From: Occultella glacieicola
Lineage (GTDB): Bacteria > Actinomycetota > Actinomycetes > Actinomycetales > Beutenbergiaceae
Length of the DNA: 43,250 nt
NCBI RefSeq assembly: GCF_004353825.1
Contig: NZ_SMNA01000018.1
Location: 1 to 43,250 of the forward strand
Direction of reading: 5' to 3'
The position numbers were made by a program, and so were the translations under genes. Below the pieces are notes generated by a model. That model did not search any database, had not been told where the DNA came from, and worked only from the letters and a program-made list of their open reading frames with translations. This document shows positions 13,608-26,888 of the stretch, piece by piece (within the stretch, counting starts at the first letter, position 1; each line of letters starts with the position of its first letter).

Positions 13608-13634
13608 GGAATGCGCGCGCGGGACCCGGCGTTG
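13608..13634 (+). promoter_or_regulatory. SigR/SigH-type ECF promoter
   Basis: GGAAT(13608-13612)-N18-GTTG(13631-13634), an exact match to the GGAAT-N18-GTT consensus. Confidence 0.7.
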
Positions 13635-13675: not shown

Positions 13676-14308
13676 TTGAGCACGCACCGTTTCCGCCGCC
13701 CCGCGATGTTGAGCCCGCAGGAGGCAGAGCAGATCGTCGGGGATGTCGATCCGGCGGTCCGGTCCGAACTCGCCCACACGACGGCGGGGGCACTCGTGCT
13801 CGGTGGCCGCCGCGGAGCCGAGGACCCCGACCTGGTGCAGCGACTGATCACCCTGGTGGACACCGAGGGCCTGGACACGGTCGCCTCGATGTGGTCGCAG
13901 AGCCCGGCCGACACCCTGCCGGGCGCGCTCTGGCGCCTCTACCTGCTGCGCGAGTGGACCCGGCGGGACCCGCACACCATCGCCGAGCGCTACCACCTCG
14001 GCCTGCACCGGGCCGAGGTGGCCGGCGTGGTCGCGGGGGTGGCCACGCCGCCCGGTCCGGACCAGATCCGCGAGCTCGCCGACGCGGTGCTCTCCGGGGT
14101 GTTCCGCGGGGATCTGGACATCACCCTCGACCGCGCGGCCGCGTTCCTGCGGGTGCTCGCGACCGGGTCGGCCATGGACGCGGACTGGGTCGAGCTCAGC
14201 GACCGCGACCGGGCCACCCGGCTCACCCGCAACGCCGGATCGCTCCTGGACACCGCCGCCGAGCTGGAGAGCGCCGCCGCCCTGTGGCGGGCCGGGCGGC
14301 TGGACTGA
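13676..14308 (+). CDS. Conserved actinobacterial hypothetical protein
   Basis: GAGGAG RBS before TTG, strong GC3 bias, family-like motifs W..SPA.TLPGALWRLY and ADAVLSGVFRGDL..LDRAAAF. Confidence 0.8.
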   Translation: MSTHRFRRPAMLSPQEAEQIVGDVDPAVRSELAHTTAGALVLGGRRGAEDPDLVQRLITLVDTEGLDTVASMWSQSPADTLPGALWRLYLLREWTRRDPHTIAERYHLGLHRAEVAGVVAGVATPPGPDQIRELADAVLSGVFRGDLDITLDRAAAFLRVLATGSAMDADWVELSDRDRATRLTRNAGSLLDTAAELESAAALWRAGRLD

Positions 14309-14315
14309 TGGGCTG

Positions 14316-15323
14316 ATGGACATCGAGCGGATGCCGTCGCTGACCGGTGCCGACGTCGCTGCCGTGCGCGACCTGGCCGACCGGGTCGCGGCCGCGGACG
14401 GCGAGGCCGCGTTCGACGAGCAGACGCTGCTGAACCTGGTCGGGGAGCGGCCGGTGGCGCACCTGGTCGTCCGGGACGCCGGGCCGGGGCACGACGGCGG
14501 TGGGTCGGCCGCGCCGACCGCCGCGCCGGTCGCGGGGCCCGACGGCGGGGGGTCGGCTCCGGCCGACGGGTCGCCGCTCGCGGTGGTCGGCTACGCCCAG
14601 ATCGCCGACTCCTCGGCCGAGCTCGCCGTGGACCCGGCGGCCCGCCGCCGGGGGATCGGAGGCGCCCTGCTGGACGCGGTCCTGGCCGACGCTCCGGACG
14701 CACACGTCTGGGCGCACGGCGACCTGCCCCCCGCGCGGGCGCTCGCGGCCCTCCGGGGGCTGCGGGTCGTGCGTGACCTGTGGGTCATGACCGCCCCCGC
14801 GCCGGCGCAGGAACGGACCGACCCGACAGGACCGGCCGGGCCGGTCGACGGCGTGCGTGTGCGCACCTTCGAACCCGGCCGCGACGAGGAGGCCTGGCTG
14901 AGCGTGAATGCCCGTGCGTTCGCCGACCACCCCGAGCAGGGCCGGACGACGCGAGCGGACCTGGACGCGCGGATGGCCCAGCCGTGGTTCGACCCGTCCG
15001 TGTTCTGGCTCGCCGAGGACGTGAACACCGGCCGAGTTCTCGGCTCGATGTGGGTGAAGATCTCCGAGGCCGTCGGCGAGATCTACGTGCTCGGCGTGGA
15101 CCCGGCGGCGCAGGGCCGTGGGATCGGCGGGCTGCTCACCGCCCATGCCATGGCGGCGTTCGCAGCCCGGGACCTGAGCGCTCTCGAGCTGTACGTGGAG
15201 GGCGAGAACGCCCCCGCGATCGCCGTGTACGAGCGGGCCGGATTCCGCCGCGCCCGGGCGCATGTCCAGTACGCGGGTTCCGGTTCACACCGACCGCCGG
15301 TAGGTGTCACGATGGGCTCATGA
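14316..15323 (+). CDS. mshD: Mycothiol synthase (tandem GNAT)
   Basis: [50 protein letters not shown] and LYVEGEN. Confidence 0.93.
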
Positions 15324-17527
15324 GCGAGCAGGTGGACAGTCTGGAAGGCGTCAACTCGATCACCCTCGACGTGGACGCGTTCAACGAGGCCGAGCCCCAC
15401 GAACTGCCCGAGGACCGGTTCGCCGATCGGGAGCTGAGTTGGCTGGCGTTCAACGAGCGGGTTCTCGAGCTCGCCGAGGACGAGGGGATGTACCTGCTCG
15501 AACGGGTCCAGTTCCTGTCCATCTTCGCCTCCAACCTCGACGAGTTCTTCATGGTCCGGGTGGCCGGCCTGAAGCGTCGTATCGCCACCGGCATGGCCGT
15601 GCCGGGCGCGTCCGGGCTGCTGCCGCGGCAGGTGCTGGACGCCATCTCCGTCAAGGCCCACGAACTCACCACCCGGCACGCCGCGGTCTTCACCGACCTG
15701 GTGCAGCCGGCGCTCGCGGACGAGGGCATCACCCTGGTCCACTTCGACCAGCTCCACGAGACGGAGAAGGAACGGCTGCACAAGTACTTCCGGAAGATGA
15801 TCTTCCCGGTGCTCACGCCGCTCGCCGTGGACCCGGCGCACCCGTTCCCGTACATCTCCGGGCTCTCCCTGAACCTGGCCGTGATCGTGCGCAACCCGAG
15901 CACCGGCAAGGAGCACTTCGCCCGGGTGAAGGTGCCGCCGCTCCTGCCCCGGTTCATCGCCGTGGACACGACTGGCCGGCCCGTGCGTCCGGAGGACGCC
16001 GCCGACAGTTCCGAGATCGCGTCCTTCGTGCCGATCGAGGACGTCATCGCCTCGTTCCTGTACTACCTGTTCCCGGGCATGGAGGTGGTGGAGCACCACA
16101 TCTTCCGGGTCACCCGCAACGAGGACCTCGAGGTGGAGGAGGACGACGCCGAGAACCTCCTGAAGGCTCTCGAGAAGGAGCTCCTGCGGCGCCGGTTCGG
16201 CCCCCCGGTGCGGCTCGAGCTCGCCTCCGGGTTCACGGACCGGCTCCGCGAGATGCTGATCCGCGAGCTCGACATCGGCGAGGCCGACGTCTACGAACTT
16301 CCGTCGCCGCTGGACCTGACCGGCCTCGGCGTGCTCACCGACCTCGACCGGCCCGAGCTGAAGTACCCCCGGTTCGTGGCGGCCACCGCGCGCGGTCTGG
16401 CCGAGGTGGAGAGCGCCAACCCGACCGACTTCTTCGCGGCGATCCGCAACCACGACATCCTCCTGCACCATCCCTACGACTCGTTCTCCACGAGCGTCCA
16501 GCAGTTCCTCGCCCAGGCGGCCGCGGACCCCAACGTGCTCGCCATCAAGCAGACCCTGTACCGCACCTCGGGTGACTCCCCGATTATCGACGCCCTGATC
16601 GACGCCGCCGAGGCCGGCAAGCAGGTGCTCGCGATCGTGGAGATCAAGGCCCGCTTCGACGAACAGGCGAACATCACCTGGGCCCGCAAGCTGGAGCAGG
16701 CCGGGGTGCACGTGGTCTACGGCATCGTTGGCCTGAAGACGCACTGCAAGCTGTCCCTGGTGGTCCGCCAGGAGGCGGACGGGCTGCGCCGGTACTGCCA
16801 CGTCGGCACCGGGAACTACAACCCGAAGACGGCCCGGCTGTACGAGGACCACGGCCTCCTGACCTGCAACTCCGAGGTGGGCCAGGACCTCACCCGGCTG
16901 TTCAACCAGCTCTCCGGGTACGCCCCGAAGTCCCGCTTCCACCGGCTCCTGGTGGCGCCCCGGTCGATCAGGGCCGGGCTCGTGGAACGGATCGAGCGGG
17001 AGATCGAGAACAAGCGGGCCGGGCGTGAGGCCTGGGTGAAGTTCAAGATGAACTCAGTCGTCGACGAGGAGACCATCGACGCCCTCTACCGGGCGTCCCA
17101 GGCCGGCGTGCAGGTGGACGTCATCGTCCGCGGCATCTGTGCCATCAAGCCCGGGATCCCGGGCCTCAGCGAGAACATCCGGGTGCGGTCGATCCTGGGC
17201 CGGTTCCTGGAGCACTCCCGGATCTACGCGTTCGCCCGCGACGGCGACCCCGAGGTCTACATCGGCAGCGCCGACCTCATGCACCGCAACCTGGACCGGC
17301 GCGTCGAGGTGCTGATCCGGGTGATCGACCCCGACCACGTCGCCGAGCTCGTGGGCCTCATCGACACCTCCGCGGCGGACAGCACCGCGACCTGGCACCT
17401 GGCCCCGGACGGCGAGGGCCGGCACGTGTGGACCCGGCACCACCTCGATGCCGACGGGAACCGGAAGCTCGACCTGCAGGAGTCCCTCATGTCGGCGCAC
17501 CGACGCCGCGCGAGCGTGGATCGCTGA
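15320..17527 (+). CDS. ppk1: Polyphosphate kinase 1
   Basis: [50 protein letters not shown] and FLEHSR. ATGA overlap with mshD. Confidence 0.97.
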
Positions 17528-17530
17528 CGC

Positions 17531-18520
17531 GTGGGGGGCTCGACTGGGCCGAAGCTGCCGGTGGTGCAGGCAGCCGGTGCCCTGGTCTGGCGGACGGCCG
17601 GGCGACGGCTCGAGGTGCTGCTGATCCACCGGCCCCGTTATGACGACTGGTCGTGGCCCAAGGGCAAGCTCGACGGCGATGGCGAGTCCCTGCCGATGTG
17701 CGCCGTGCGGGAGGTCAAGGAGGAGACCGGCATCTCGGTGGTGCTCGGCGTTCCGCTGCCGTCGGTGAGGTACCGGCTCACCGACGGACGCGTGAAGGTC
17801 TGCACCTACTGGGCTGCGACGCCGGCACCGCAGGAGTGTCCCGCGATCGCCCCGAGGGGCAGGATCAAGGACGCCTCCAAGCACGAGGTCGACGAGTCCC
17901 GCTGGGTGGAGGCCCGGGCGGCGCGCAAGCTCCTGACCCGCTCCGACGACGTCGAGCCGCTCGAGGCCCTGCTCGACCTGTGGGACGACGGACTGCTGGA
18001 CACCTGGACGGTGATCGTGGCCCGGCACGGGCGGGCTCGGAGCCGCTCGTCGTGGAAGGGCGGCGAGCCGACGCGTCCGCTCACCCCGGTCGGCGCGAAG
18101 CAGGCAGGCGCGATGGTGCCGATCCTTGCCGCGTACGGCGTGGAGGAGGTCCTCTCCTCGCCCTGGGAGAGGTGCGTGGCCACCATGGGGCCCTACCTGG
18201 ACGCGAGTGGCCTTGACCTGATCACGGCGCCGCAGCTGACCGAGACCGCGGCGACGAAGAACAAGCCGGCCGTGCGGTCGTTCGTTGGTGACCTCCTCGG
18301 CGCGCGACGCCGCCCGACCGTGGTGTGCACCCATCGTCCGGTCCTGCCGGTCGTCCTCACCGCGATCTCGGCGCGGAGCCCGTACCGGCTCTCCAAGGCA
18401 CTGCCGGACCGGGACCCGTACCTGCGCACCGCGGAACTTCTGGTGATCCACATGGCCCGGCGGGCCACGGGCAAGGCCCGGCTCGTCGCCCTCGAGCGGC
18501 AGCGTGGCCCCGAGGCCTAG
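17531..18520 (+). CDS. NUDIX hydrolase fused to a histidine phosphatase domain (MutT1-like)
   Basis: HRPRYDDWSWPKGK, Nudix box REVKEETG, and C-terminal RHG...RPL...SSP..RC. Confidence 0.9.
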   Translation: MGGSTGPKLPVVQAAGALVWRTAGRRLEVLLIHRPRYDDWSWPKGKLDGDGESLPMCAVREVKEETGISVVLGVPLPSVRYRLTDGRVKVCTYWAATPAPQECPAIAPRGRIKDASKHEVDESRWVEARAARKLLTRSDDVEPLEALLDLWDDGLLDTWTVIVARHGRARSRSSWKGGEPTRPLTPVGAKQAGAMVPILAAYGVEEVLSSPWERCVATMGPYLDASGLDLITAPQLTETAATKNKPAVRSFVGDLLGARRRPTVVCTHRPVLPVVLTAISARSPYRLSKALPDRDPYLRTAELLVIHMARRATGKARLVALERQRGPEA

Positions 18521-18616
18521 GAGGTGCTTCACGGTTCAACCAGTTTCCAAGCAGGGCCCAAGGGCGGGTCGAGCACGGCGTCGTCGTGGCGAACGTCACG
18601 TCCATCGTTGTGGCTC

Positions 18617-18638
18617 GTTCACCTGCTGTTCACCTGAA
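18617..18638 (+). promoter_or_regulatory. PHO box (two 11-nt direct repeats) upstream of pstS
   Basis: GTTCACCTGCT-GTTCACCTGAA matches the actinobacterial PhoP/RegX3-type GTTCACC direct repeat. Confidence 0.8.
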
Positions 18639-18747
18639 TCGGGACGGGCATACACCCACGCTCCCTACCGTCAGGCGTGGCTGCGGCACGCTGGGGAATC
18701 GACCGGGCGCGCAGTTCCGACCTAGCCAACAGAAACGGGATTCGAAC

Positions 18748-19887
18748 GTGAAGCTTGCATCTAGCCGCCGCCTGGCGGGCATCACCGCGATCAGCGCGCT
18801 CGCGCTCACCCTCGCCGCCTGCGGCGGGGGCGACGGCGACGACACGTCCACCGACGGCGACACCGGTGGCGACAACGGCGGCGCCAGCGCCGACCTCTCC
18901 GGCTCCATCGCCGGCTCCGGCGCCAGCTCCCAGGAGAACGCGGTTGGCGGGTGGATCGCCGGCTTCACCGAGGCGAACCCGGACGTCACGGTGACCTACG
19001 ACCCGACCGGGTCGGGCACCGGGCGCGAGCAGTTCCTCAACGGCACCGTGCTGTTCGCAGGTTCGGACGCCGCGATGGACGAGGAGGAGCTCGCCTCGGG
19101 TGTGGAGCGCTGCTTCGGCGGCGAGGTCATCGAGCTGCCGCTGTACATCAGCCCGATCGCCGTCATCTACAACCTGCCGAGCGTGGACGCCGAGCACATC
19201 AACATGGACGCGGCCACGATCGCCGGCGTGTTCGCCGGAGAGATCACGAACTGGAACGACCCGGCCATCGCCGACGCGAACCCCGACGTCGAGCTGCCCG
19301 ACCTGCCGATCGTCCCGGTGAACCGCTCCGACGAGTCCGGCACCACCGAGAACTTCACGGAGTACCTCACGGCCGCCGCGGGCGACGTGTGGACCCACGG
19401 TCCCGTCGAGACCTGGCCGATCTCCGGCACCCAGTCCGGTGCGCAGACCTCCGGCATGATCGACGTCGTCTCCGGCGCCGAGGGCACCATCGGCTACGCC
19501 GACGCCTCCCGCGCCGGCGACTTGGGCACCGTCGCCGTCGGCGTCGGTGAGGAGTTCGTGCCGTTCTCCCCGGAGGCCGCCGCGAAGATCATCGACGTGT
19601 CCCCGGCCACCGCCGACGCGACCGACCTGCGTCTGACGATCGACCTGGCCCGCGACACCACCGAGGCCGGGACCTACCCGATCGTGCTGGTCTCGTACTC
19701 GATCGCCTGCTCGGTCTACGACAACGAGGCGGACGCCGCGAACGTGGCCGGCTACCTCAACTACGTGGCCAGCCCCGAGGGCCAGGACCGCGCCGCGCAG
19801 CCGGACGTCGCCGGTTCCGCGCCGATCTCGGACGACCTGCGCGAGCGGGTCATCGCGGCCCTCGACCAGATCACGGTCGCCGGCTGA
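18748..19887 (+). CDS. pstS: Phosphate ABC transporter substrate-binding lipoprotein
   Basis: Lipobox LAAC; GSGASSQ, YDPTGSGTG, FAGSD, RSDESGTT and YPIVLVSY. Confidence 0.95.
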   Translation: MKLASSRRLAGITAISALALTLAACGGGDGDDTSTDGDTGGDNGGASADLSGSIAGSGASSQENAVGGWIAGFTEANPDVTVTYDPTGSGTGREQFLNGTVLFAGSDAAMDEEELASGVERCFGGEVIELPLYISPIAVIYNLPSVDAEHINMDAATIAGVFAGEITNWNDPAIADANPDVELPDLPIVPVNRSDESGTTENFTEYLTAAAGDVWTHGPVETWPISGTQSGAQTSGMIDVVSGAEGTIGYADASRAGDLGTVAVGVGEEFVPFSPEAAAKIIDVSPATADATDLRLTIDLARDTTEAGTYPIVLVSYSIACSVYDNEADAANVAGYLNYVASPEGQDRAAQPDVAGSAPISDDLRERVIAALDQITVAG

Positions 19888-19901
19888 TCCAGCCGAACAC
19901 C

Positions 19902-19946
19902 TCAGGCGGGTCGGTGTCTCAGTACGCTGAGCACCGACTCGCCTGA
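19902..19946 (+). terminator. Strong stem-loop between pstS and pstC (mRNA stabiliser or attenuator)
   Basis: TCAGGCGGGTCGGTG-T-CTCAG-TACG-CTGAG-CACCGACTCGCCTGA: about 20 bp of stem with a UACG loop and a G-U pair on the + strand. Confidence 0.75.
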
Positions 19947-19991
19947 CGCACGTCGATCCCTCCCATCCCCCCACATCGACCCGGAGGACCA

Positions 19992-20999
19992 GTGGCAGTC
20001 ACCGATTCACCCCCCTCGGAACCCGAAGCGCCCCCCAAGGTGCGGGCCGGGCGGGCCCCAGGCCGCCTGGGCAACCGGGTCTTCCAGGGGATCTCCACTG
20101 CCAGTGGCATCTTCATCCTGGTCATCCTCGCCGCGGTCGCGATCTTCCTGCTGGTCCGCGCCTGGCCGGCCGTCACCGCGGCGCCGTCCGCGTTCGAGGA
20201 CGTCGGCTTCATGCTCGGCCGGGACCTGTGGTCCTGGGTCTGGCCGCTGCTGTTCGGCACCGCGATCTCCTCGGTCATCGCGCTCGTGGTGGCCGTGCCG
20301 CTCAGCATCGGCATCGGGCTGTTCATCTCGCACTACGCACCGCGCCGGCTCGCGCAGGGCCTCGGCTACCTGATCGACCTGCTCGCCGCGATCCCCTCGG
20401 TGATCTTCGGCCTCTGGGGCATCCAGTGGCTGCAGCCACTGGTGAGCCCGCTGTTCACGTGGCTCAGCACGAACCCGGCCACCGCCTGGCTCGAGGAGAA
20501 CGTCGGCCCGACGATCTTCAGCGGGTACCAGGCCCCGGCCCGCAACATCCTCACCGCCGGCCTCGTGCTCGCGATCATGGTCCTGCCGATCATCACCGCG
20601 ACCGTGCGTGAGGTGTTCCTGCAGACCCCGCGGCTGCACGAGGAGGCCTCCCTGGCCCTCGGGGCGACCCGGTGGGAGATGATCCGTCAGGCGGTCCTGC
20701 CGTTCGGGCGCTCCGGCGTGATCTCGGCGACCATGCTCGGCCTCGGCCGGGCCCTCGGTGAGACGATGGCGGTGCTGATGGTCCTCTCGCCCGGGTACCT
20801 GATCAACTTCTTCCTGCTCCAGCCCGGTCAGCACCAGTCGATCGCGGCCAACATCGCCAGCCACTTCCCGGAGGCCAGCGGCATCGGGGTGGACGCCCTG
20901 ATCGCGTCCGGGCTGATCCTGTTCGTCATGACCTTCGGCGTGAACCTCGTCGCCCGCTGGATCATCGCCCGCCGCGCCGAGTTCTCGGGAGCCAACTGA
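19992..20999 (+). CDS. pstC: Phosphate ABC transporter permease
   Basis: LLAAIPSVIFGLWG, EASLALGATRWE and GRALGETMAV. Confidence 0.95.
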   Translation: MAVTDSPPSEPEAPPKVRAGRAPGRLGNRVFQGISTASGIFILVILAAVAIFLLVRAWPAVTAAPSAFEDVGFMLGRDLWSWVWPLLFGTAISSVIALVVAVPLSIGIGLFISHYAPRRLAQGLGYLIDLLAAIPSVIFGLWGIQWLQPLVSPLFTWLSTNPATAWLEENVGPTIFSGYQAPARNILTAGLVLAIMVLPIITATVREVFLQTPRLHEEASLALGATRWEMIRQAVLPFGRSGVISATMLGLGRALGETMAVLMVLSPGYLINFFLLQPGQHQSIAANIASHFPEASGIGVDALIASGLILFVMTFGVNLVARWIIARRAEFSGAN

Positions 21000-22048
21000 T
21001 GAGCGTCACCACGCCCCCGGTCCCGGTCCGGACCACGCGCCGGCTCCCCAGGTGGGCGCCGATCCCGGTCCTCGTCGCCTCCCTCCTGCTCGCCGCCGGG
21101 ATCCAGTTCCTCGGGGATGGCCCCACCATCGCCGGCGTGTTCTTCATCGGCGCGATCCTGTTCGGCATCATCATGACGGTGACGTCCCGGGTGGTCGAGG
21201 GGGAGCGGTACGCCAAGGACCGGCTCGCCACCACCCTGGTCACGTTCGCGTTCCTCCTCGCGCTGATCCCGCTGGTCTCGCTGCTCTGGATCGTGATCCG
21301 GGACGGGGTGAAGCGGTTCAGCTGGGAGTTCCTCACCACCGACATGACCGGCATCTACGGGCAGATGGTCGAGGGTGGCGCGTTCCACGCGATCATCGGC
21401 ACCGTCTACGTCACCGGCATCGCCTCGATCATCGCGATCCCGCTCGGGATCTTCACGGCCATCTACCTGGTCGAGTACGGCCGTGGCCCGCTGTCCCGCG
21501 GGATCACCGTGCTGGTCGACGTGATGACCGGTATCCCGTCGATCGTGGCCGGCCTGTTCGCGTTCACGCTGTTCCTGGTGATTGTGGGTCCGGCGTACAA
21601 GTCGGCCCTGATCGGCGGGATCGCCCTCGCGGTGCTGATGACCCCGGTCGTGGTGCGCAGCGTCGAGGAGATGCTGCGCCTGGTCCCGAACGAGTTGCGC
21701 GAGGCGTCCTACGCGCTCGGCGTGCCGAAGTGGCTGACTATCGTGAAGGTGGTGCTGCGCACCGCCATCGCGGGCATCACCACCGGTGTCATGATCGCCA
21801 TCGCGCGGGTCATCGGTGAGACCGCCCCGCTGCTGCTCACGGTCGGCATCGCCACGGCCGTGAACTGGGACGCCTTCGACGGCCGGATCGCCACCCTGCC
21901 GGTGTTCGTCTACCGCCAGTACGCGCAGGGCGGGGCCTCCGCGGACCGTGCCTGGGCCGCCGCCCTCACCCTGATCATCATCGTGATGCTGCTGAACCTC
22001 GTCGCGCGCCTGGTCAGCAGGTACTTCTCCCCGAAGGGGGCCCGGTGA
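20999..22048 (+). CDS. pstA: Phosphate ABC transporter permease
   Basis: GIPSIVAGLF, LREASYALG, ARVIGETAPL and RAWAAAL. TGATG coupling to pstC. Confidence 0.95.
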   Translation: MSVTTPPVPVRTTRRLPRWAPIPVLVASLLLAAGIQFLGDGPTIAGVFFIGAILFGIIMTVTSRVVEGERYAKDRLATTLVTFAFLLALIPLVSLLWIVIRDGVKRFSWEFLTTDMTGIYGQMVEGGAFHAIIGTVYVTGIASIIAIPLGIFTAIYLVEYGRGPLSRGITVLVDVMTGIPSIVAGLFAFTLFLVIVGPAYKSALIGGIALAVLMTPVVVRSVEEMLRLVPNELREASYALGVPKWLTIVKVVLRTAIAGITTGVMIAIARVIGETAPLLLTVGIATAVNWDAFDGRIATLPVFVYRQYAQGGASADRAWAAALTLIIIVMLLNLVARLVSRYFSPKGAR

Positions 22049-22126
22049 CCTCGATGATCCCCCCGACCACCGCCCCGACCTCTCCCCCCGCCCACCGCTG
22101 CACCGCCCGCCCCGGAAGGACCGCTT

Positions 22127-22906
22127 GTGTCTAAGCGCATCGATGTCAACGACCTGAACGTCTACTACGGCGACTTCCTCGCCGTCGAGGGCGTGAACAT
22201 GGTGATCGAGGCGCGCAGCGTGACCGCCCTGATCGGCCCGTCGGGCTGCGGCAAGTCCACGTTCCTGCGCACCCTGAACCGGATGCACGAGGTCATCCCG
22301 AAGGCCTACGTGACCGGCAAGGCCGTCATGGACGGTCAGGACCTGTACGGCCCGGGCGTCGACCCGGTCGAGGTCCGGCGTCAGGTCGGCATGGTGTTCC
22401 AGCGCCCGAACCCGTTCCCGACGATGTCCATCGCGGACAACGTGCTGGCCGGCGTGCGGCTGAACAACCGCCGGATCAGCCGCTCCGACGCCACGGACCT
22501 GGTGGAGCGGTCGCTGACCGGTGCGAACCTCTGGAACGAGGTCAAGGACCGGCTGGACCGGCCCGGCTCGTCACTGTCCGGTGGGCAGCAGCAGCGCCTG
22601 TGCATCGCTCGTGCGATCGCGGTGGAGCCGCAGGTGCTCCTGATGGACGAGCCCTGCTCGGCGCTCGACCCGATCTCCACCCTCGCCATCGAGGACCTGA
22701 TCGCGGAGCTGAAGAACAACTACACGATCGTGATCGTGACCCACAACATGCAGCAGGCGGCCCGGGTCTCGGACCGCACCGGCTTCTTCAACATCGCCGG
22801 CACCGGCAAGCCCGGGCACCTCATCGAGATGGACGACACCACCACGATGTTCTCCACTCCGTCCGTGAAGGCCACCGAGGACTACATCTCCGGCCGCTTC
22901 GGCTGA
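22127..22906 (+). CDS. pstB: Phosphate ABC transporter ATP-binding protein
   Basis: [41 protein letters not shown] and YISGRFG. Confidence 0.97.
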
Positions 22907-23521
22907 TCAGATGCCGGCGCCCTCGAACGAGGTCGTGGTCGGCTCCGCGGACACCGCCACACAGTAGGCGGTGCGGGAGCCGGCCGCCCAGGTGTCCGCG
23001 CTCGGGGTGATCGGAGCCACGGACAGCGAGGAGTCGGCGGCCGCGATGCCGACGAAGTCCTCGAACAGACCGGTGCACTCCTCCAGCGCGATCGTCTGGA
23101 CCTCCGTGTCACCGGGATACGCGCCGTCGGCCATCTCGTAGACCGCGACGATCTGGACCTCGTGCTCGGTGGCACAGTCGATCGTCGGCAGCCCGGAGAT
23201 CCCGTCGCCCTCGGTGATCACCGCGTACAGGTCGCTGGCCCGCAGGCAGTCACCCACGTCGGCCACCGGCACCCCGGAGGAGTCCGTGGCGGTCGTGGTG
23301 TCCGGGGCGGGGGTCGACGGCGGTGTCGAGCCCGCGGTGCCGCCCGGTTCGTCCGGGCTGCTCGAGGCGCTGTCGCTGGGTTCTTCTGTGCCGCCGCCCT
23401 GCGTGAACGTCTGCGGGGAGTCCTCAGGGCCGCCAGAGCACGCGGCGAGGACCGGCGCGACCAATGCGGCGGCGGCGAGCGCCAGGACGGCGCGACGGCG
23501 GCGGACGGCAGCAGCGGTCAT
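22907..23521 (-). CDS. Putative lipoprotein with a septum-formation-like (four-Cys) domain
   Basis: Signal peptide ending VLAAC, a Ser/Pro/Thr linker, then VGDC...IDCATEH..YPG...C...W..GSR...C. Confidence 0.75.
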   Translation of the reverse strand: MTAAAVRRRRAVLALAAAALVAPVLAACSGGPEDSPQTFTQGGGTEEPSDSASSSPDEPGGTAGSTPPSTPAPDTTTATDSSGVPVADVGDCLRASDLYAVITEGDGISGLPTIDCATEHEVQIVAVYEMADGAYPGDTEVQTIALEECTGLFEDFVGIAAADSSLSVAPITPSADTWAAGSRTAYCVAVSAEPTTTSFEGAGI

Positions 23522-23601
23522 GGGGCATCGGCTCCTCGGTGCGGGTGGGGCGGCCGCACCAACGTACCCGACGACGTGCCTGACGGGCCGGGCGCCGACG
23601 G

Positions 23602-23642
23602 CGAAGGGCCGCACCCTCGGACTCAAGGGGTGCGGCCCTTCG
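23602..23642 (-). terminator. 15-bp perfect hairpin after the lipoprotein gene
   Basis: CGAAGGGCCGCACCC ... GGGTGCGGCCCTTCG, about 20 nt past the stop at 23664. Confidence 0.7.
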
Positions 23643-23663
23643 TCATGGGGCCGTCGGGGCGAC

Positions 23664-24107
23664 TCAGACGGCCGCGCCCTCCCAGCTCTCGGTGACGGTG
23701 GAGCCATCCGTCAGGAAGGCGATGCACAGCACCTCACGGTCGTTGGCCTGGTCCCAGGTGCTCTCGTTCGGCGCGATCCAGTCGAGCTCGAGGGTGGACT
23801 CCTCGTAGCTGAGCCCGATGAAGGACTCGAAGCCGGAGAGGCAGCCCTCCTGGGCGGCGGTCGCGATCGCGTCGTCGCCGGGGAAGTCGCCGTCCTGATC
23901 GATGTCGAAGGAGTGCACGAACTGGGCGTCGTGCGCCTCGCCGCAGTCGACGGTGGGGATCTCGGTGAGCTCGCCGGACAGGTCCTCGAGGTTGGAGCAG
24001 GCGCCGACTTCGGCGGTGGCGACCTGGCTGCCACAGGCGGCCAGCGACGCGGCCAGGCCGGCGGCGCCGACCAGGGCGAGGGCGGTGCGGACGATGCGAC
24101 GGGACAT
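23664..24107 (-). CDS. Putative lipoprotein with a septum-formation-like domain (paralog of the neighbour)
   Basis: Lipobox SLAAC; VGAC...VDCGEAH..FPG...C...W..NDREVLC. TAGACT -10 at 24170-24175. Confidence 0.78.
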   Translation of the reverse strand: MSRRIVRTALALVGAAGLAASLAACGSQVATAEVGACSNLEDLSGELTEIPTVDCGEAHDAQFVHSFDIDQDGDFPGDDAIATAAQEGCLSGFESFIGLSYEESTLELDWIAPNESTWDQANDREVLCIAFLTDGSTVTESWEGAAV

Positions 24108-24267
24108 AGGTGTGAACTCCCCGGGAGTAGGTGGCAGCCGGGGCGTGCCCGGTGCGTGATGTCGGGGTGAGTCTATGAGCCCGGCAGGCCTGCGCGCGCC
24201 GGTATCCATGGGCAGGAGTGCCCGCTCGCGGTCCCGATGAAACACCGGCCAAGGCCCGGGCGGGACC

Positions 24268-25260
24268 TCACAGGAACAGCGAGAGGACCAGGTAGAGGAC
24301 CGCGGCCACGGTCGCCGCCGCGGGGATGGTCAGCACCCAGGCCACGCCGATGCTTCGGGCCATGCCCCAGCGCACCGCGGAGGCCCGCTTCGTGGCGCCG
24401 ACGCCCATGATCGCCGACGTGATGGTGTGGGTCGTCGAGATCGGCGCATGGAACACGAACGCCGTCGTGTAGAGCACGCTCGAGGCGACCGACTCCGCCA
24501 CGAAGCCACGAGCGGGGTCGAGCTCGATGACCTTGCGTCCCAGCGTGCGCATGATCCGCCAGCCGCCGGAGTACGTACCGAGCGAGATCGCCCCGGCCGC
24601 GGCGAGCTTCACCCAGAGCGGGATCTCGGTGCCCTCGTGCAGCCCGCCCGCGACCAGCGCGAGCACGATGACCCCCATCGTCTTCTGCGCGTCCTGGAGC
24701 CCGTGCCCGAGCGCCATCGCCGCCGCCGAGACCGTCTGGGCCAGCCGGAACCGGCGCTGGGTGCGGCCCGGGGCGGCGTTCCGGAAGGCCCACAGCACCG
24801 CGATCATGACCACGTACGCCAGGGCGAACCCGACCAGGGGTGAGGCCACCATCGGGATGACCACCTTGTCCAGGATCACCGACCAGTGCACGGTGGACAG
24901 GGACGCGATACCGGCGCCCAGGAGGCCACCGATGAGCGCGTGCGAGGACGAGGACGGCAGGCCCTTCCACCACGTGATCAGGTTCCAGGCGATCGCGCCG
25001 AGCAGGCCCGCGAGCACCACGATCAGGCCCGACGGCCCGGCCGGGGTGTCGATGATGCCGCTGCCGATGGTCTCGGCGACGCCGGTGCCGAGCAGGGCGC
25101 CGACCATGTTCATGGAGGCGGCGAGCAGGAGCGCAGCGCGTGGGGTGAGCGCTCTCGTCGAGACGGAGGTCGCGATCGCGTTCGCCGCGTCGTGGAACCC
25201 GTTGGTGTAGTCGAACGCGAGGGCGATCACGACCACGAGCAGGACGAGGAGGAGCTCCAC
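24268..25260 (-). CDS. Inorganic phosphate transporter (PiT family)
   Basis: NGFHDAANAIAT, GLPSSSSHAL, HGLQDAQK and PISTTH. Confidence 0.95.
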   Translation of the reverse strand: MELLLVLLVVVIALAFDYTNGFHDAANAIATSVSTRALTPRAALLLAASMNMVGALLGTGVAETIGSGIIDTPAGPSGLIVVLAGLLGAIAWNLITWWKGLPSSSSHALIGGLLGAGIASLSTVHWSVILDKVVIPMVASPLVGFALAYVVMIAVLWAFRNAAPGRTQRRFRLAQTVSAAAMALGHGLQDAQKTMGVIVLALVAGGLHEGTEIPLWVKLAAAGAISLGTYSGGWRIMRTLGRKVIELDPARGFVAESVASSVLYTTAFVFHAPISTTHTITSAIMGVGATKRASAVRWGMARSIGVAWVLTIPAAATVAAVLYLVLSLFL

Positions 25261-25264
25261 CGGC

Positions 25265-25903
25265 TCAGGTCTCCTTGACGTAGATGGTCTGCACCACGCT
25301 GCCCACCCGCTCGAACGCGTCGGCGGCCTTCTCGAGCTCGTCGACGACCCCCTTGAGCTTGATCAGGTCCACCACGTCCGTCGGGGTCTGCTGGTACTGC
25401 GGGCTCCCGAACAGGTGCGCCAGCAGCGCGCGGTGGGTCCGGTTGGCCTCGCTCTCCAGCCGGTTGATCTCCTGCCAGTACGGCTTCAGGTCGGTCATCG
25501 TGCGCAGCCGGGGCATCGCGGCGGCGGTCAGCTCGGCGGCGCGCTGCAGCGTCGAGACCATGGTGATGACGTCGTCGGGCAGGTCGACGATCTGGAAGAG
25601 CACGATGATGTCGCCGGCCGCCTCCATCGCATCGATGCAGTCGTCCATCGCGGTCGCCAGCGTGTAGATGTCGTCGCGATCGAACGGCGTCACGAACGTC
25701 TGGTTCAGCCGGTTCGTGATCGTCGCCCGCGTGGTGTCCGCCTCCTGCTCGGCCGCCCGGAGCCGGGCGGCGTATCCCGGCCGGTCGGCCGGCTCGGCTC
25801 CGATCAGCTGGGCGAGCAGGTCGGCACCGGTGACCAGGTGTTCGGCGTTCGACGCGAAGAGGTCGAAGAACGTGACATCGCGTGGGGTCAGGCGGAAGCG
25901 CAC
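25265..25903 (-). CDS. DUF47 (PhoU-like) phosphate transport regulator
   Basis: FFDLF, LNQTFVTPFDRDDIY.L...MDD and LEKAADAFE. GGAG RBS before GTG 25903; directly upstream of pit. Confidence 0.92.
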   Translation of the reverse strand: MRFRLTPRDVTFFDLFASNAEHLVTGADLLAQLIGAEPADRPGYAARLRAAEQEADTTRATITNRLNQTFVTPFDRDDIYTLATAMDDCIDAMEAAGDIIVLFQIVDLPDDVITMVSTLQRAAELTAAAMPRLRTMTDLKPYWQEINRLESEANRTHRALLAHLFGSPQYQQTPTDVVDLIKLKGVVDELEKAADAFERVGSVVQTIYVKET

Positions 25904-26000
25904 AGCATTCACTCCGGGGGAAGGGGCAATGTCAGCGAGATCAGGCTAGAGCACTCCGGGCCGACAGCCGCCCGGTCGGCGAGAGCAGCCGAGGGGAGAG

Positions 26001-26085
26001 GACGCCGGGCCGCCCAGCGCCTGACGGCGCGAAGGCCGCTCGTAGCGGCTGATGTTGGAGCCCGGGGCTAGCGCGACCCGACGTC
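26001..26085 (-). ncRNA. Candidate structured RNA (multibranch leader or sRNA) upstream of DUF47-pit
   Basis: 13-bp closing stem with two G-U pairs on the minus strand and three internal hairpins. TAGACT -10 lies 7 nt before the first base. Confidence 0.55.
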
Positions 26086-26132
26086 GGTGACAAGTCTAAC
26101 GGCCGACGGCGGGGTGGGCTCGGTGGGTGAGG

Positions 26133-26888
26133 TCACAGTGCCGGTTCGGCCGAGTCAGCACTGTCAGCGCTGTCGGCGCCGGCCGACTCCGTGCTCGTGT
26201 CGCCGCCGGGGCGCCGCTCGCGGGGCAGGTCGAACCGGTACCCGACGTTACGGACCGTGCCGATCATCGCGTCGTGCTCCGGGCCGAGCTTCGCCCGCAG
26301 GCGCCGCACGTGGACATCCACGGTGCGGGTACCGCCGTAGTAGTCGTAGCCCCACACCTCCTGCAGCAGCTGGGCTCGGGTGAACACCCGGCCCGGGTGC
26401 TGGCTCAGGTACTTCAGGAGTTCGAACTCCTTGTAGGTCAGGTCCAGCGGCTCCCCGCGCAGGCGGGCCGTGTACCCGCCGGAGTCGATCACGAGGTCAC
26501 CGGCGAGGATCTCCTCGGGGTCGTCGGCCGACTGCCGGTCGGAACGCTGGGCGACCAGCCGCAGCCGTGCGTCCACCTCCGCCGGGCCGGCCTCGGCGAG
26601 CACCAGATCGTCGATCCCCCAGTCCTGCCCCACCACGGACAGCCCGCCCTCGCCGAGCACCAGGAGCACCGGCACCTCGATGCCGGTGGTGCGCAGCAGC
26701 TGGCAGGTGCTCCGGGCGCGCGCGAGGTCGCGACGTCCGTCGATGAGCACCACATCCGCGTCCGGTGCGTCCAGCAGCGACGACGGCTCCACCGGGACCA
26801 CCCGGACGCGGTGATGCAGCAGTGCGAGGGCGGGGAGCACCTGTGCTGAACCGCCAGGCTCTGATGTGAGTAGCAGAAGTTCCGCCAC
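26133..26888 (-). CDS. glnR: Orphan OmpR-family nitrogen regulator GlnR
   Basis: Atypical receiver VLPALALL.H...[19 protein letters not shown], w[12 protein letters not shown]...[24 protein letters not shown]. No adjacent kinase; same neighbourhood as Rv0818 (mshD, pstB, nitrobindin, ygfZ). Confidence 0.85.

Follow-up and report, generated by a model that had tools for sequence, protein, structure and literature searches.

The 43,250-nt stretch of Occultella glacieicola DNA analyzed here (the window) very probably carries, on its minus strand, a stand-alone small RNA gene of about 85 to 95 nt that is homologous to scr2952 of Streptomyces. An orphan Streptomyces sRNA would then belong to a class of structured RNAs that extends across most Actinomycetes, where its conservation is tRNA-like, yet it matches no Rfam model. 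In the window, the RNA is predicted as a discrete transcript, and a discrete RNA has been published for Streptomyces members only. Relative to the literature that we found, the class-wide range, the structure, the promoter pattern and the linkage to a protein (here called protein X) appear to be new. With a consensus structure, a promoter pattern and a candidate partner at hand, function becomes testable in S. coelicolor or Arthrobacter.

The RNA gene, its promoter and its distribution

The features of the gene and its immediate surroundings are as follows.

26001..26085, minus strand: folded body of the scr2952-family small RNA gene, 85 nt, from direct reading and the MFE fold
26098-26093, minus strand: TAGACT, the -10 hexamer of the RNA, with GTT ahead of it, no GGAA -35 and a 7-nt gap to the stem
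25960..25980, minus strand: 6-bp hairpin 3' of the RNA, a possible weak terminator whose sequence is not conserved

A first-pass annotation had described the TAGACT hexamer followed 7 nt later by a 13-bp closing stem with two G-U pairs, enclosing three hairpins and a linker, and all of these elements can be read in the window sequence as it stated. The MFE fold of the window RNA is the fold that it proposed (-51.5 kcal/mol, z -3.08), and 1 of 200 shuffled sequences folded equally well. The further hairpin that it placed at 25960-25980 is also there, with 6 Watson-Crick pairs, as is the second TAGACT ahead of tRNA-Lys (at 9448-9443, 33 nt before the gene); the hexamer occurs four times in the window. 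A sigma-70 and terminator scan found nothing. The RNA is present as a single copy in the genome, and its 5' end is predicted at about 26086-26087. In a DNA search, the core kept an identity of 88 to 98% across the 19 best relatives, whereas the flanks diverged, which is more than chance would give.

The proposal that the RNA has its own promoter is borne out by the homologs, in which TANNNT lies at a set distance, 10 to 16 nt ahead of the closing stem (P1), in 109 of 162 distinct sequences (shuffles, mean 6.9 and maximum 14). A second motif, GGAA-N18-20-GTT, which we take to be the SigR/SigH/SigE-type promoter consensus, precedes P1 in 47 of the 162 (shuffles, mean 0.19 and maximum 2), and likewise in 26 of 60 further loci and in 23 of 25 loci of genus g58 (inferred to be Streptomyces); 34 of the 162 have neither. 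Ahead of the window copy, a search for GGAAY..GTT found none. Strong hairpins follow P1 in 24 of the 162 homologs (1.8 expected) and in 13 of the 25 g58 loci.

When the intergenic region served as a DNA query, 59 of 61 genomes had matches, of which the strong ones fell on the 89-nt core and some of the weak ones on other pieces. The exact core pattern gave at least 120 matches in species genomes, and among the matches listed were Cellulomonas, Arthrobacter, Microbacterium, Bifidobacterium and others, as well as Nocardioides, Nocardia, Gordonia and Pseudonocardia. A covariance model (R1) built on 117 sequences, with g58 left out, found the RNA in 103 of 151 genomes of the class, a tally that includes the unpublished G083 and G090; in a sample of the phylum it found 10 of 151, all of them among the 12 genomes that belong to the class. 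A second model (R2) missed only one of the 151 genomes of the order, the other 150 reaching down to a size of 1.5 Mb, and found the RNA in all 39 genomes of g58 and in 20 of 40 of family f59. When R2 was run on 40 of the 48 R1-negative genomes of the class, 5 were found (three of them at E values of 0.005 to 0.011). A miss by a model is to be read as not found and not as proof of absence. In 40 genomes from other classes, R2 found none, in a run that had no positive control. The one genome of the order in which the RNA was not detected, G464, is a reduced genome of 0.8 Mb.

Some genomes carry additional copies, in genus g30 (for example G460, which has 8, and L278) and also at L187, L067 and G371. 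Some of these copies form tandem arrays, most have a GGAA..GTT promoter and a terminator hairpin, and at L067 short and long variants stand side by side. At L050 (G006) and L051 (G018), only a paralog-type copy was seen, far from protein X. We also considered a mobile-element origin for the RNA and rejected it, as matches in mobile elements are almost nil: 2 phage records, 2 partial plasmid matches and 2 viral contigs only.

The conserved fold

The comparative evidence supports a conserved fold, predicted from the alignments, that would run from P1 through an internal loop and P1b into a three-way junction with P3 and P4.

26073..26085, minus strand: P1, 5' strand, pairing with 26013-26001; 13 of 13 pairs change on both sides
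26001..26013, minus strand: P1, 3' strand, pairing with 26085-26073
26067..26069, minus strand: P1b, 5' strand AGC, pairing with GCU at 26018-26016
26056..26067, minus strand: junction strand CCCC(G/C)GG-YYY-CA, conserved in model-found members
26050..26055, minus strand: linker of fixed length and free sequence (6 nt in 135/162, with 110 different sequences)
26035..26049, minus strand: P3, 5 bp with a UNCGA pentaloop; C-G/U-A swap in 40/102
26018..26029, minus strand: P4 hairpin with a GNNA loop, nearly invariant, with one compensatory A-U

Conservation and covariation in related genomes, which the first-pass annotation had named as the way to check its structure, were both found. In a plain alignment, stem covariation exceeded that of 500 of 500 shuffles and of all slid controls on every measure, counts in which related sequences are not independent of one another. 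The strongest signal near the junction came from P1b, whose AGC/GCU pairing had the top APC-corrected mutual information (0.66) and whose G-C pair shows double changes in 29 of 117 sequences. G-U exceeds A-C in P1 by 121 to 3 among 1,020 cells of the model-fitted alignment, and the RNA strand is therefore the minus strand. Among 102 model-found members, CCCC, GG and P4 are 99 to 100% invariant, and the C and A of the junction CA are conserved at 95% and 98%, values to which the pattern- and model-based searches themselves contribute. Some lineages extend P3 by about 25 to 55 nt and keep the UNCG-purine tip; at L210:1526-1633, the 5' arm and loop of P3 are tandemly duplicated within the RNA.

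One part of the originally proposed fold did not hold up. Its first hairpin, AGCC/GGCU, belongs to the MFE structure in the window, but it is not a conserved pairing: AGC pairs instead with the GCU that follows P4. Of the two outer pairs of that hairpin, one is lost in 33 and the other in 37 of 117 sequences, and the two inner ones are invariant and hence uninformative. For the window sequence, the covarying fold (-40.9 kcal/mol) falls short of the originally proposed one (-49.4 kcal/mol) by 8.5 kcal/mol in stability, which suggests that tertiary contacts or a bound protein would be required to hold it. An invariant junction with short hairpins, joined by a linker of set length but free sequence, is the signature of a tertiary fold. 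A long-range pairing of CCCC.GG across P4 was also considered; the single compensatory change in P4 disfavors it, and the strand is otherwise invariant.

Genomic context and relation to scr2952

The neighbors of the RNA in the window had led the first-pass annotation to consider a riboswitch-type leader of a phosphate transport operon.

25265..25912, minus strand: DUF47 (PhoU_div) gene, start probably GTG 25903, where homologs begin
24268..25260, minus strand: PiT-family phosphate transporter
26133..26888, minus strand: glnR-type orphan response regulator, a neighbor of the RNA only in the window's family and a few others
25943..25948, minus strand: TAGCCT, a separate -10 of DUF47-pit; motif present before 24 of the 64 DUF47 genes examined

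Neighbors were counted in 79 pattern-found loci with long flanks by our own gene caller, leaving out L052, L059 (no match) and L084 (cut). DUF47 does follow the RNA on the same strand in 61 of the 64 loci that hold it, both in the window's family and in other lineages, and this is what a leader would require. However, DUF47 lies within 2.5 kb of the RNA in just 26 of the 79 loci (and the GlnR cluster in 2), the remaining neighbors are unrelated genes, and in 27 of the 79 the gene that comes next is encoded on the opposite strand (same strand in 50, unseen in 2). Moreover, in two relatives (L041 and L048) the RNA is inverted between glnR and DUF47 so that it points away from DUF47, which nonetheless retains its own TAGCCT -10, and no expression platform was seen. 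Given such variable downstream genes, which the annotation itself had said would count against cis regulation, we consider a riboswitch or leader controlling DUF47-pit extremely unlikely; the phosphate context belongs to the locus and not to the target of the RNA.

The inverted copies bear on a second reading as well, in which the element has no functional transcript of its own and instead forms the structured 3' end, or the terminator, of the gene before it, or else acts as DNA. In 56 of the 79 loci the upstream gene shares the strand of the RNA, as that reading would have it. Against it, the promoter motif moves with the RNA on inversion (L041, L048 and L268), the G-U bias is that of a single-strand RNA, and a discrete sRNA is described for Streptomyces in the published material available, so that we hold it to be very unlikely. 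The earlier view that the element is not a simple glnR terminator is upheld, as is its alternative of a stand-alone small RNA. Flipping of the RNA cassette with the flanking genes kept appears to have occurred independently in several lineages (L041, L048, L268, L276 and L277). The glnR-type regulator is of the OmpR family, and its clustered homolog at L087 carries Pfam GlnR_1st.

The identity of the Streptomyces member is suggested by its neighborhood. All 25 g58 loci have the RNA next to a gene for a HelD-like helicase, and 23 of them also have it next to a malic-enzyme gene, with the RNA inverted at L268; R1, from which g58 had been left out, scores the RNA in this interval at 62.8 bits (E 3e-10), and a pairwise alignment of the window RNA with the g58 member keeps the core. 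The literature places scr2952 of S. coelicolor between sco2951 and sco2952 on the + strand, with a length of 84 nt, and lists it as conserved as sar5126 and svr2719 (PMC3765725); SCO2951 is a malic enzyme (PMC7494193), and an HrdB ChIP summit at 3208713 precedes the 5' end of scr2952 by 6 nt (PMC6344877). The interval of scr2952 in S. coelicolor A3(2) is 3208719-3208802. In S. ambofaciens, RNA-seq identified sRNA #12, which is 95 nt long, lies beside helD and is on the strand opposite the flanking units (PMC8388888); compared by eye, the sequence printed for it and locus L268 agree over some 90 nt. That paper also states that expression of scr2952 was confirmed by Vockenhuber et al. in 2011 and that scr2952 is present in Rfam, and its Table S13 gives, for sRNA_12 in a pirA mutant versus the wild type, figures of -1.7 and -1.4, which seem to be log fold changes (PMC8388888). 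Judging from the flanking genes, the + strand, the 84-nt length and the syntenic S. ambofaciens RNA, the g58 RNA is very probably scr2952.

The window RNA and the g58 RNA taken to be scr2952 are of the same family by model (39 of 39 g58 genomes, in the same helD/malic-enzyme interval); the window copy differs in its neighbors and in having no GGAA -35. In the parts of the papers available to us, scr2952 is described as a Streptomyces sRNA, without a structure, a function or a class-wide range. The statement that the RNA belongs to no known family thus stands in part: Rfam has no match to it, but its Streptomyces member is very probably a named sRNA. The Rfam check proposed by the first-pass annotation gave no match for the window RNA at the gathering score or at E values up to 10, and Rfam 15 (including 6C, Ms1, SRP, Y RNA, ribozymes and riboswitches) likewise had no relevant match to it, to 20 distant loci or to the g58 loci; neither ARAGORN nor RF00005 called a tRNA or tmRNA on the window RNA. 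The literature yielded no account of a class-wide motif, although supplements of motif screens may hold one, and no description of the RNA class was found in the available text of PMC8632094, PMC11109978 and PMC3388012.

Likenesses to other RNAs can be drawn. The window RNA is a stand-alone, conserved, structure-driven actinobacterial RNA, as are the Ms1 and 6S-type RNAs, which bind polymerase, but it is much shorter, has another architecture and has no Rfam match. Bacterial Y RNA, which works with Rsr, has an end-to-end long stem carrying a compact module and a gene beside a protein gene. In the present family, too, the two ends of the RNA pair in a long stem that carries a compact module, and a protein gene usually adjoins; however, that protein matches neither TROVE nor any other Pfam family, and ARAGORN makes no tRNA-like call. 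Like 6C RNA, it is small, is encoded on its own, occurs in many actinomycetes and has a conserved strand rich in C, whereas 6C RNA consists of two stem-loops with C-rich loops (PMC8388888), in place of a three-way junction on a long stem.

Possible modes of action and protein X

We find it somewhat more probable than otherwise that the RNA acts through its fold together with a protein, a reading suggested by the invariance of the junction, the fixed linker length and near-universal retention. A sigma-A promoter would drive transcription of the RNA, joined in many lineages by one of the SigR/SigH type, and because of the latter its abundance probably rises in thiol or protein-damage stress. It would act in trans through its three-dimensional fold, bound to protein as a sponge or scaffold, and would not work by pairing with mRNAs.

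A different role for the junction strand CCCC.GG-YYY-CA would be that of a seed, by which a base-pairing sRNA recognizes G-rich or Shine-Dalgarno sequences; 6C RNA uses its C-rich strand in such a manner. This is the only long conserved strand that lacks a covarying partner, its YYYC could pair with purine-rich ribosome-binding sites, and the extra copies in g30 resemble sibling sRNAs. However, the strand is nearly palindromic and lies inside a junction that is closed on both sides, its YYY part varies without pattern, a fixed linker length and an invariant P4 would be needless for a seed, and the 40 blast matches listed in the genome include no long complement. We therefore think a seed function unlikely. 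Still less likely is a catalytic or metabolite-binding RNA acting in trans, such as a small ribozyme or a ligand sponge. A compact fold in which a very large part of the junction bases is invariant would suit such an RNA, but no Rfam ribozyme or riboswitch matches, and a mostly single chromosomal copy with its own promoter, nearly absent from phages, plasmids and viral contigs, is unlike typical self-cleaving ribozymes.

For the fold-with-protein reading, the candidate partner and a motif ahead of its gene lie elsewhere in the window.

13676..14308, plus strand: protein X, about 200 to 210 amino acids, all-helical, of no family; 11.7 kb from the RNA here
13608..13633, plus strand: GGAAT-N18-GTT promoter-like motif ahead of protein X and the mshD-like and ppk genes; weak, one of 261 such motifs in the genome

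Protein X lies within 2.5 kb of the RNA in 49 of the 79 loci. Within the order, the two have the same distribution, 150 of 151 genomes, and both are kept even in 1.5-Mb host-associated genomes; their joint loss is seen in a single genome, the reduced G464 of 0.8 Mb. In genomes with both positions listed, the two are within 600 nt in 94 of 123 and within 15 kb in 114 of 123. In the class, protein X was found in 42 of 151 genomes (a count that includes the unpublished G083), and every one of the 42 also has the RNA, which was itself found in 103 of 151. Beside 22 loci from L181-L202, the search for a distant protein X found none beyond the one of the own genome, and none was found in g58. We tentatively name protein X as the likeliest partner of the RNA in the order, an assignment that is possible but doubtful, as adjacency could be plain synteny. 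Since Streptomyces-type genomes lack protein X, the core target would be another conserved protein, for example of the transcription or translation machinery. A housekeeping ribonucleoprotein of Actinomycetes, combining the three-way-junction RNA, a dedicated protein X of unmatched fold, a thiol-stress sigma factor and a transcription or translation target, is a speculative picture to which we give well under even credence.

The linkage to the RNA offers the first handle on a large protein family that has been mislabeled as an RNA polymerase subunit. Relatives of protein X form 712 clusters at 50% identity, none of which is named with a family in the Atlas, and Pfam, NCBIfam and PHROGs assigned it to no family. 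The database label of RNA polymerase beta subunit was rejected, as a profile finds only protein X in the genome (next E value, 0.0014). A SigR-type motif as a general link between the RNA and protein X was rejected as well: only 1 of 58 other protein X genes has it. The AlphaFold model is all-helical and confident (pLDDT 93). Foldseek gave no match at E 0.001, and VIA-align gave a best Z of 9.6, to generic helical hairpins, which is not proof of a new fold; the fold matches cover only residues 145 to 210. Positions 136 to 175 of the protein X profile weakly match (E 0.023, 40 residues) yeast glutaminyl-tRNA synthetase in its N-terminal domain (3TL4), and the GlnRS N-terminal/YqeY-like tRNA-binding domain was not among the fold matches. 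The protein is acidic (median pI 5.2), with five arginines and two tryptophans kept.

In the window, protein X opens a same-strand run (13676-22906) that continues with a GNAT (mshD-like) gene, polyphosphate kinase, a NUDIX/His-phosphatase gene and pstSCAB, and that converges on pit-DUF47. Between pstB and pit, on the minus strand at 22907-24122, lie two tandem lipoprotein-like genes with no NCBIfam match; similar genes occur in 11 related loci.
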